From assembly GCF_003334255.1 (NCBI RefSeq), contig NZ_QOWU01000007.1: a stretch of DNA of 64,000 nucleotides; one strand, given 5' to 3'. Numbering within the stretch: the first letter of the stretch is position 1; every line of letters begins with the position of its first letter. Positions 41,284 through 43,580 of this stretch are shown one piece after another. The notes beneath the pieces are model-generated. The model had not been told where the DNA came from. It did no database searches and saw only the letters and a program-made list of their open reading frames with translations. The position numbers and the translations under genes are program-made. Origin of the DNA: Escherichia coli. Lineage in GTDB: Bacteria; Pseudomonadota; Gammaproteobacteria; Enterobacterales; Enterobacteriaceae.

Positions 41284-43580
41284 ATGACGAATCGTATCTC
41301 TCGCCTCAAAACTGCACTGTTTGCCAATACCCGTGAAATCTCGCTGGAGCGGGCGCTGCTTTATACCGCCAGCCATCGGCAAACCGAAGGCGAACCGGTG
41401 ATATTGCGCCGGGCGAAAGCAACAGCGTATATCCTTGAACATGTTGAAATTTCGATTCGTGATGAAGAACTGATTGCCGGTAACCGCACCGTAAAACCGC
41501 GCGCCGGGATTATGTCGCCGGAAATGGACCCTTACTGGCTGCTGAAAGAGCTGGATCAATTCCCGACGCGTCCGCAGGACCGCTTTGCTATCAGCGAAGA
41601 AGATAAACGTATCTACCGTGAAGAGTTGTTCCCGTACTGGGAAAAACGTTCGATGAAAGATTTCATCAACGGGCAGATGACAGATGAAGTAAAAGCCGCG
41701 ACCAACACGCAGATTTTCAGCATCAACCAGACGGATAAAGGCCAGGGGCACATTATTATTGATTACCCACGCCTGTTGAATCACGGGCTGGGTGAGCTGG
41801 TGGCACAGATGCAGCAACATTGTCAGCAACAGCCGGAGAATCACTTTTATCAGGCCGCGTTGTTACTGCTGGAAGCCTCGCAGAAACACATTTTGCGTTA
41901 CGCCGAACTGGCGGAAACGATGGCGGCAAACTGCACAGATGCCCAGCGTCGCGAAGAGCTGCTGACTATTGCAGAGATCTCCCGCCATAACGCGCAACAT
42001 AAGCCGCAGACGTTCTGGCAGGCGTGCCAGTTATTCTGGTACATGAACATCATTCTGCAATACGAATCCAACGCCAGTTCGCTATCGTTGGGGCGCTTCG
42101 ACCAGTATATGTTGCCGTTCTATCAGACATCATTAACCCAGGGCGAAGATGCGGCGTTCCTGAAAGAACTGCTCGAATCTTTATGGGTGAAATGCAACGA
42201 CATCGTGCTGTTGCGCTCCACCAGTAGCGCGCGTTATTTCGCCGGTTTCCCGACCGGCTATACCGCACTGCTCGGCGGGTTAACCGAGAACGGACGTAGC
42301 GCGGTGAACGTGCTTTCGTTCCTTTGCCTTGACGCCTATCAAAGCGTGCAATTACCGCAACCGAACCTCGGCGTGCGCACTAAGCCTTGATCGACACGCC
42401 GTTCCTGATGAAAACCGCCGAAACCATTCGCTTCGGCACCGGTATTCCGCAAATCTTTAACGATGAAGTGGTGGTGCCAGCGTTCCTCAACCGTGGCGTT
42501 TCGCTGGAAGATGCGCGCGACTATTCCGTAGTGGGCTGTGTGGAATTATCTATTCCCGGCAGAACCTACGGCTTGCATGACATCGCGATGTTTAATCTGC
42601 TGAAAGTGATGGAAATCTGCCTGCATGAAAATGAAGGCAATGCTGCGCTGACTTATGAAGGTTTACTGGAGCAGATCCGCGCCAAGATCAGCCACTACAT
42701 CACCCTGATGGTTGAGGGCAGCAATATTTGTGATATCGGCCATCGCGACTGGGCACCTGTACCGCTGCTCTCATCGTTTATCAGCGATTGTCTGGAAAAA
42801 GGCCGCGATATTACCGATGGCGGCGCGCGTTATAACTTCTCCGGCGTACAGGGGATCGGTATCGCCAACCTGAGCGATTCTCTCCATGCGTTGAAAGGGA
42901 TGGTTTTTGAGCAACAGCGTTTAAGTTTTGACGAATTGCTGTCGGTATTAAAAGCCAACTTCGCAACGCCAGAAGGCGAAAAAGTCCGCGCTCGCTTAAT
43001 TAACCGCTTCGAGAAATACGGTAACGATATCGACGAGGTGGATAACATCAGCGCCGAACTGTTGCGCCACTACTGCAAAGAAGTGGAAAAATACCAGAAC
43101 CCGCGCGGCGGCTACTTCACGCCGGGATCGTATACCGTTTCTGCTCACGTCCCGTTGGGATCGGTGGTTGGCGCGACGCCAGACGGTCGTTTTGCCGGAG
43201 AACAGCTGGCAGACGGCGGCTTGTCACCCATGCTGGGCCAGGACGCACAAGGGCCAACAGCGGTACTGAAGTCAGTCAGTAAGCTCGATAACACGCTGCT
43301 GTCTAACGGTACGTTGCTGAACGTGAAATTCACTCCGGCGACCCTGGAAGGTGAAGCAGGATTACGCAAACTGGCCGACTTCTTACGGGCGTTTACCCAG
43401 CTTAAGTTACAACATATTCAGTTTAACGTGGTGAACGCCGACACGTTGCGGGAAGCGCAACAGCGCCCACAAGATTATGCCGGGCTGGTGGTGCGCGTTG
43501 CCGGATACAGCGCCTTCTTTGTCGAACTGTCGAAGGAGATCCAGGATGACATCATCCGCCGGACAGCGCATCAGCTGTAA
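41284..43580 (+). pseudogene. pflD: Glycyl-radical enzyme PflD (formate acetyltransferase 2 homolog), split into two ORFs by an apparent 1-nt frameshift near 42381-42390
   Basis: Track ORFs 41284..42390 (368 aa) and 42387..43580 (397 aa, TTG start, no SD) lie in different frames and sum to 765 aa, the length I recall for intact PflD; the junction ...GVRTKP* / (L)IDTPFLMK falls at the ccttga run. Confidence 0.6.

Follow-up and report, generated by a model that had tools for sequence, protein, structure and literature searches.

The question raised by this locus is whether the broken reading frame of pflD in an assembled Escherichia coli genome reflects a real mutation, an error of sequencing, or a gene that still works in two pieces. 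PflD belongs to the PFL2/glycerol-dehydratase type of glycyl-radical enzymes. In the window (the whole 64,000-nucleotide stretch of DNA that was analysed), the list of open reading frames splits its gene in two, with the same coordinates and lengths as a previous sequence-only reading had given. We conclude that the break is very probably a genuine, inherited 1-base deletion which has made pflD a pseudogene in a small lineage of K-12-like E. coli, comprising among others the genotypes G1/2, G6/7 and G8 and the strain from which the window comes. The gene, its two pieces and the lesion are placed as follows:

41284..43580, + strand: pflD pseudogene, 2297 nt (identity to G1/2 pflD, alignment to MG1655p)
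41284..42390, + strand: 5′ fragment ORF, 368 aa, then TGA (ORF list, NF007437 and Pfam matches)
42387..43580, + strand: 3′ fragment ORF, 397 aa, opening with TTG (the Leu369 codon) and running to the original stop (ORF list, NF007437 and Pfam matches)
42383..42384, + strand: site of the 1-nt deletion, C missing (alignments with TST3, MG1655p and OkiPb01678)

At the junction (window 42360-42400, accgaacctc ggcgtgcgca ctaagccttg atcgacacgc) the 5′ ORF ends in GVRTKP followed by the stop codon TGA at 42388-42390, which overlaps the TTG start codon of the 3′ ORF at 42387-42389 (TTGA). None of the tetramers AGGA, GGAG and GAGG occurs in the 20 nt upstream of this TTG (CTCGGCGTGCGCACTAAGCC), and direct reading of the sequence therefore bears out the earlier description of a TTG start that lacks a Shine-Dalgarno-like element. 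The gene is 2297 nt long in the window as compared with 2298 nt in K-12, where the intact protein has 765 residues. We aligned the junction with those of G1/2, TST3 and MG1655p, and the whole gene with those of MG1655p and OkiPb01678. Both the junction and the whole-gene alignments place a single gap in the window, between A42383 and G42384, where the Asn367 codon (AAC) has lost its C, such that ACT AAC GCC TTG ATC has become ACT AAG CCT TGA; the reference reads Thr-Asn-Ala-Leu-Ile at this point and the ancestral protein sequence is RTNALID. With A on one side of the lost C and G on the other, the gap can be placed unambiguously and does not fall in a homopolymer. Apart from this gap, the window's pflD differs from that of MG1655p by one synonymous change only (42437, GGC versus GGT) and is identical to that of TST3, the nearest intact allele, while it matches the pflD annotated as 'frameshifted' by PGAP in G1/2 over its full length at 100% identity. 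It had also been considered that the reference might have the identical sequence annotated as a single 765-aa coding sequence, in which case there would be no frameshift at all; this was checked, and the reference has one base more.

These alignments revise part of what the sequence-only reading had proposed. It had located the frameshift in a T run and taken a T at 42385-42387 to be the missing base. However, the sole T run at the junction is the TT at 42387-42388, and it is the C of the Asn367 codon that is absent relative to MG1655p and TST3, which rules out an error in a T run or other homopolymer. Insertion of a T does restore the reading frame, as had been suggested, but the result (RTKPLID) is not the ancestral RTNALID, a caution that a frame-restoring guess may be plausible and yet wrong about the ancestral sequence. 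The length of 765 aa given there for intact PflD was correct. The two fragments do add up to this number (368 + 397 = 765) because a 1-nt deletion is followed by an overlapping stop and start: the 368-aa fragment consists of 366 native residues plus an out-of-frame Lys-Pro, and the 397-aa fragment corresponds to residues 369-765 with Leu369 as the initiator.

The occurrence of the same lesion elsewhere bears directly on whether it is real. A 201-nt query spanning the junction matches 5398 of 5426 complete E. coli genomes, and the match is free of gaps in only three of them, namely G1/2 (NZ_CP060083), G6/7 (NZ_CP060061) and G8 (NZ_CP060057); among the matches listed, the other 37 all span 202 nt against the 201 nt of the query. 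Single-base indels are the commonest assembly error and the three complete carriers come from one submitter series (CP060057, CP060061 and CP060083), both of which are compatible with an artefact in which the true genome retains the C and the base was dropped by the sequencer or polisher. Against this, PGAP marks pflD of G1/2 as a 'frameshifted' pseudogene (locus tag H4P46_RS24705) and annotates no second frameshifted gene in the region equivalent to the 64-kb window, where pflD is the only pseudogene among 62 distinct annotated features; the assembly is therefore not generally indel-prone. The exact 368-aa product is encoded on 90 contigs and the exact 397-aa product on 98, drawn from several sources (NCBI, ENA and Logan), although some of these roughly 90 contigs may be resequenced probiotic strains, and so represent independent runs rather than necessarily independent isolates. 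The deletion is also carried by two short-read metagenome contigs built by different software, referred to here as L081 and L082: a 125-kb contig with a MEGAHIT-style k141_ name (ERZ27285841) and a NODE contig that SPAdes assembled at 93.6x coverage (ERZ21883129); the two have private SNPs at 38685 and at 38794 and 45247, respectively. One candidate cause of an artefact, a systematic long-read error near the Dam site GATC (42389-42392) that lies 5 nt downstream of the gap, is ruled out by the presence of the deletion in these short-read assemblies.

The window, G1/2, L081 and L082 thus share the deletion and differ from one another by one to four private SNPs over 18-64 kb. Since four distinguishable haplotypes obtained via different sequencing and assembly routes have the same lesion, an assembly artefact is ruled out for practical purposes, and we regard it as highly improbable. 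This shows an allele that is inherited, in a lineage already starting to diversify. Both a genuine strain-specific inactivation and a homopolymer sequencing error had been entertained before, together with a check of other isolates. That check found the deletion in G1/2, G6/7, G8 and further public contigs; its presence in three separately assembled complete genomes and two independent short-read metagenome assemblies supports the former view, and the latter does not survive the finding that a lone C outside any homopolymer is missing from independent assemblies. In a metagenome scan by pattern matching for both alleles, 70 contigs were wild type and one was deleted. The deleted one is a contig at approximately 2x coverage (ERZ779896 NODE_3772, equivalent to window 34290-43206). 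Besides the same C deletion it has lost another 7 nt (window 41973-41980), and its flanks contain clustered blocks of SNPs at 99.4% identity. This contig is a mosaic and may combine co-resident strains in a chimera, derive from recombination or simply contain many errors; we took it as evidence of nothing but the rarity of the allele.

The carriers belong to a small lineage. The probiotic Symbioflor 2 contains six E. coli genotypes, among them G1/2, G6/7 and G8, which were isolated in 1956 from a single healthy donor (PMC4358396), and G6/7 and G8 closely resemble G1/2 (PMC5138452). Over 64 kb, the window differs from G1/2 at four SNPs (9225, 47505, 53627 and 60083) and by one additional copy of a 123-bp repeat, and the matches of G6/7 and G8 to the window are equal in score and span to that of G1/2. 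The flanking DNA is K-12-like, with nine SNPs in 34 kb relative to XL10-gold. Intact 765-aa PflD is found on at least 1000 contigs, and Citrobacter and E. albertii have relatives of the same length, which makes the deletion the derived condition. Several isolates that were sequenced independently share one lesion on flanking haplotypes that are nearly identical, while outgroups retain the intact gene. This is the pattern of a lineage-specific pseudogene, and we infer that the mutation is recent and the pseudogene confined to this lineage. A literature search for this pflD frameshift allele found nothing, the match to DGF-298 being an engineered deletion.

Two of the differences between the window and G1/2 deserve separate mention. 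The A at window 47505, in codon 17 of eptC (- strand), is private to the window, with G in G1/2, XL10-gold, L081 and L082. The change is synonymous, as the translated N-termini are identical, and could mark the source strain. The repeat lies in the ppc-argE intergenic region (window 50634-51103) and comprises 3.8 tandem copies of 123 bp at 98% identity. The window, K-12 XL10-gold and TST3 all have one copy more than G1/2, G6/7, G8 and many other strains. Among the short-read assemblies, L082 ends inside the repeat and L081 collapses it (an intergenic region of 352 nt, versus 598 in G1/2 and 721 in XL10-gold). This copy-variable repeat is the main structural difference between the window and the closest complete genomes. 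The suggestion that the window is itself one of the three RefSeq carriers is ruled out by the four SNPs and the difference in repeat copy number from G1/2.

The genes around pflD are intact:

35221..36324, - strand: gldA, divergent, intact (coordinates transferred from L004, offset +17999)
36335..36997, - strand: fsa/fsaB, divergent, intact (transferred from L004, offset +17999)
37009..39510, - strand: multidomain PTS protein annotated 'ptsP', divergent, intact (transferred from L004, offset +17999)
39819..40898, + strand: frwC, PTS component, same operon upstream, intact (WP_001004446.1, identical in G1/2 and K-12)
40913..41233, + strand: frwB, PTS component, same operon upstream, intact (WP_000161265.1, identical in G1/2 and K-12)
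43546..44424, + strand: pflC, glycyl-radical activating enzyme, intact (WP_000204105.1 in G1/2 and K-12)
44426..44767, + strand: frwD, PTS IIB-like, last gene of the operon, intact (WP_000323846.1 in G1/2 and K-12)

The activating-enzyme and PTS neighbourhood expected for PflD is therefore complete: the radical-SAM gene pflC, which shares 35 nt with the end of pflD and over which the window has the sequence of G1/2, is intact alongside frwC, frwB and frwD, and all four products are identical to the K-12 proteins. Likewise, the protein identifiers of gldA, fsa and 'ptsP' are identical to those of K-12 XL10-gold. This is a single-hit, recent inactivation and not a decaying locus. The 833-aa 'ptsP' product (37009-39510, - strand) combines Pfam HPr, PEP-utiliser (enzyme I) and EIIA_2 domains. 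These domains mark it as the frw cluster's multidomain PTS protein, which we take to be PtsA/FrwA in K-12 nomenclature, and not the PtsP of the nitrogen PTS, so that only the naming is at issue. PflD acts in an anaerobic pathway initiated by a PTS, where it dehydrates 1,5-anhydromannitol-6-phosphate and so forms 1-deoxyfructose-6-phosphate; YbiW carries out the same reaction on 1,5-anhydroglucitol-6-phosphate (Ma et al., JACS 2024, as summarised in PMC12441222). The products of gldA and fsa and the multidomain PTS protein presumably provide the remaining steps of the PflD pathway. The label of 'cryptic enzyme' previously attached to PflD is thus outdated, given this assignment as a 1,5-anhydromannitol-6-phosphate dehydratase in the summarised account (PMC12441222) and the existence of a structure in the PDB (8yjo).

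The consequence of the deletion for the protein can be read from the family models and from the position of the catalytic residues:

42537..42539, + strand: codon TGT of catalytic Cys419 (GCVE), gene nt 1255-1257, in the 3′ fragment
43503..43505, + strand: codon GGA of radical Gly741 (RVAGY), gene nt 2221-2223, in the 3′ fragment

NF007437 is the NCBIfam equivalog model for PflD (765 positions, cut-off 1109 bits), with TIGR01774 as the corresponding subfamily model. Intact K-12 PflD matches NF007437 from end to end with 1724.8 bits, whereas the 5′ fragment matches positions 1-366 with 800.2 bits and the 3′ fragment positions 369-765 with 899.7 bits, both under the cut-off. In Pfam terms, the 5′ fragment has the PFL-like domain only and lacks Gly_radical, and the 3′ fragment has a PFL-like and a Gly_radical match. 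In the numbering of the intact protein, GCVE occupies residues 418-421 and RVAGY residues 738-742, and both motifs are encoded solely in the 3′ fragment. The dehydratase-type Cys loop (GCVE, one Cys followed two residues on by a Glu), the RVxGY motif and the N-terminal half-barrel are consequently not found on one polypeptide, the N-terminal 366 residues being encoded by a separate ORF. The solved structure closest to PflD is 8yjo (E. coli PflD itself); next are 8id0, whose deposited name is formate C-acetyltransferase, and B12-independent glycerol dehydratase, in that order.

Translation from the native start would stop two codons past the deletion, at TGA 42388-42390, and yield a 368-aa N-terminal piece with neither the catalytic Cys419 nor the radical Gly741. 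The downstream 397 codons have no ribosome-binding site and would at best be weakly translated via reinitiation at the TTGA. Neither piece alone is expected to form the ten-stranded glycyl-radical barrel, and the strain is therefore predicted to be without PflD activity. In addition, premature termination may reduce the expression of pflC and frwD through polarity.

Overlapping stop and start codons can support translational coupling, and the TTGA at the junction therefore invites a different reading, in which pflD is a functional split gene: both halves would be made, the second by termination-reinitiation, and would assemble non-covalently into an active glycyl-radical enzyme. The start in question is a weak TTG with no Shine-Dalgarno sequence, however. 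The position of the break is not unfavourable to such an arrangement, as it falls approximately 50 residues before the Cys loop and, by extrapolation from PFL/GDH, whose fold is known, probably near the boundary of the five-stranded half-barrels. Moreover, glycyl-radical enzymes can use a separate radical-domain protein, GrcA, and the C-terminus of PflD matches GrcA models. Nevertheless, no natural two-piece enzyme of the PflD type was found among the homologues, where the remaining truncated entries either run off a contig end or have lesions of independent origin. It might also be argued that pflC and the rest of the cluster are intact and that in four carriers the fragments are free of secondary lesions. 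Yet the carriers resemble one another too closely to allow a test of selection, and the absence of decay therefore just reflects a young mutation. The allele is also rare, with three carriers among about 5400 complete genomes and one among 71 metagenome contigs. A two-piece dehydratase would, if true, constitute natural fragment complementation in the glycyl-radical family, but we consider it very unlikely. Programmed recoding, whereby ribosomal -1 frameshifting or transcriptional slippage restores the full-length protein, has a negligible probability: the two frames overlap, so that a -1 shift would in principle join them, but a TAA at 42381-42383 in the downstream frame limits the shift window to AAG CCT, up to the TGA at 42388-42390, these codons lie outside any X XXY YYZ slippery motif and allow no tRNA re-pairing in the -1 frame (AAG to TAA, CCT to GCC), transcriptional slippage needs a homopolymer where none is present, and homologues are single 765-aa ORFs in which the shift is not conserved. 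With neither a slippery heptamer nor a conserved two-frame arrangement, the junction was rejected as a programmed -1 frameshift site.

Elsewhere in the window, Rfam matches at the gathering level identify several RNA elements, all of which are expected in this part of the E. coli chromosome:

799-876, - strand: naRNA4 (Rfam)
5881-5922, - strand: ES036 element (Rfam)
19574-19631, - strand: ClpQY promoter element (Rfam)
24243-24295, + strand: L31 leader (Rfam)
25275-25316, + strand: ES036 element (Rfam)
55696-55805, - strand: OxyS (Rfam)
60795-60984, + strand: btuB cobalamin riboswitch (Rfam)

Returning to the inherited deletion, the pflD pseudogene is already flagged by RefSeq annotation and is an ordinary lineage-specific loss. 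As a recent loss of function in a dispensable anaerobic sugar-alcohol pathway it is of little general importance. It does, however, cleanly mark the lineage of the Symbioflor 2 E. coli clade G1/2-G6/7-G8 and its wild relatives. The predicted difference from K-12 is a lack of PflD-dependent anaerobic use of 1,5-anhydromannitol, and carrier strains would therefore serve as naturally occurring pflD-null controls in work on radical-mediated glycolysis, a pathway described in 2024.

The locus may be compared with several known systems. The first is K-12 pflD (b3951, WP_000184811.1; 'Probable dehydratase PflD' in UniProt; PDB 8yjo), which occupies the same locus, flanked by the same neighbours (frwC-frwB-pflD-pflC-frwD and the divergent ptsA-fsaB-gldA). 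Relative to it, the window's gene lacks the C of codon 367, giving the 368-aa and 397-aa pieces, and has one synonymous change. The second and closest likeness is to the pflD pseudogene of Symbioflor 2 G1/2, G6/7 and G8, which is the same 2297-nt gene with the same deletion, annotated as 'frameshifted' in G1/2; from G1/2 the window departs only by the four SNPs over 64 kb and the additional copy of the 123-bp repeat between ppc and argE. The third comprises independent lesions of this non-essential gene in other E. coli, which are events distinct from that in the window. The pflD of OkiPb01678 (L007) is likewise annotated as 'frameshifted' but has lost a G from a GGG run at about gene nt 1251, immediately ahead of the codon for the catalytic Cys, and its haplotype departs from K-12 at numerous positions over the gene. 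As the loss lies in a homopolymer, it may be genuine or may have arisen in assembly. In TB354 an IS3-associated deletion has removed the 5′ part of pflD together with part of the upstream PTS gene, leaving the remainder adjoining the IS3 transposase. Recurrent loss of pflD fits a dispensable, niche-specific gene.
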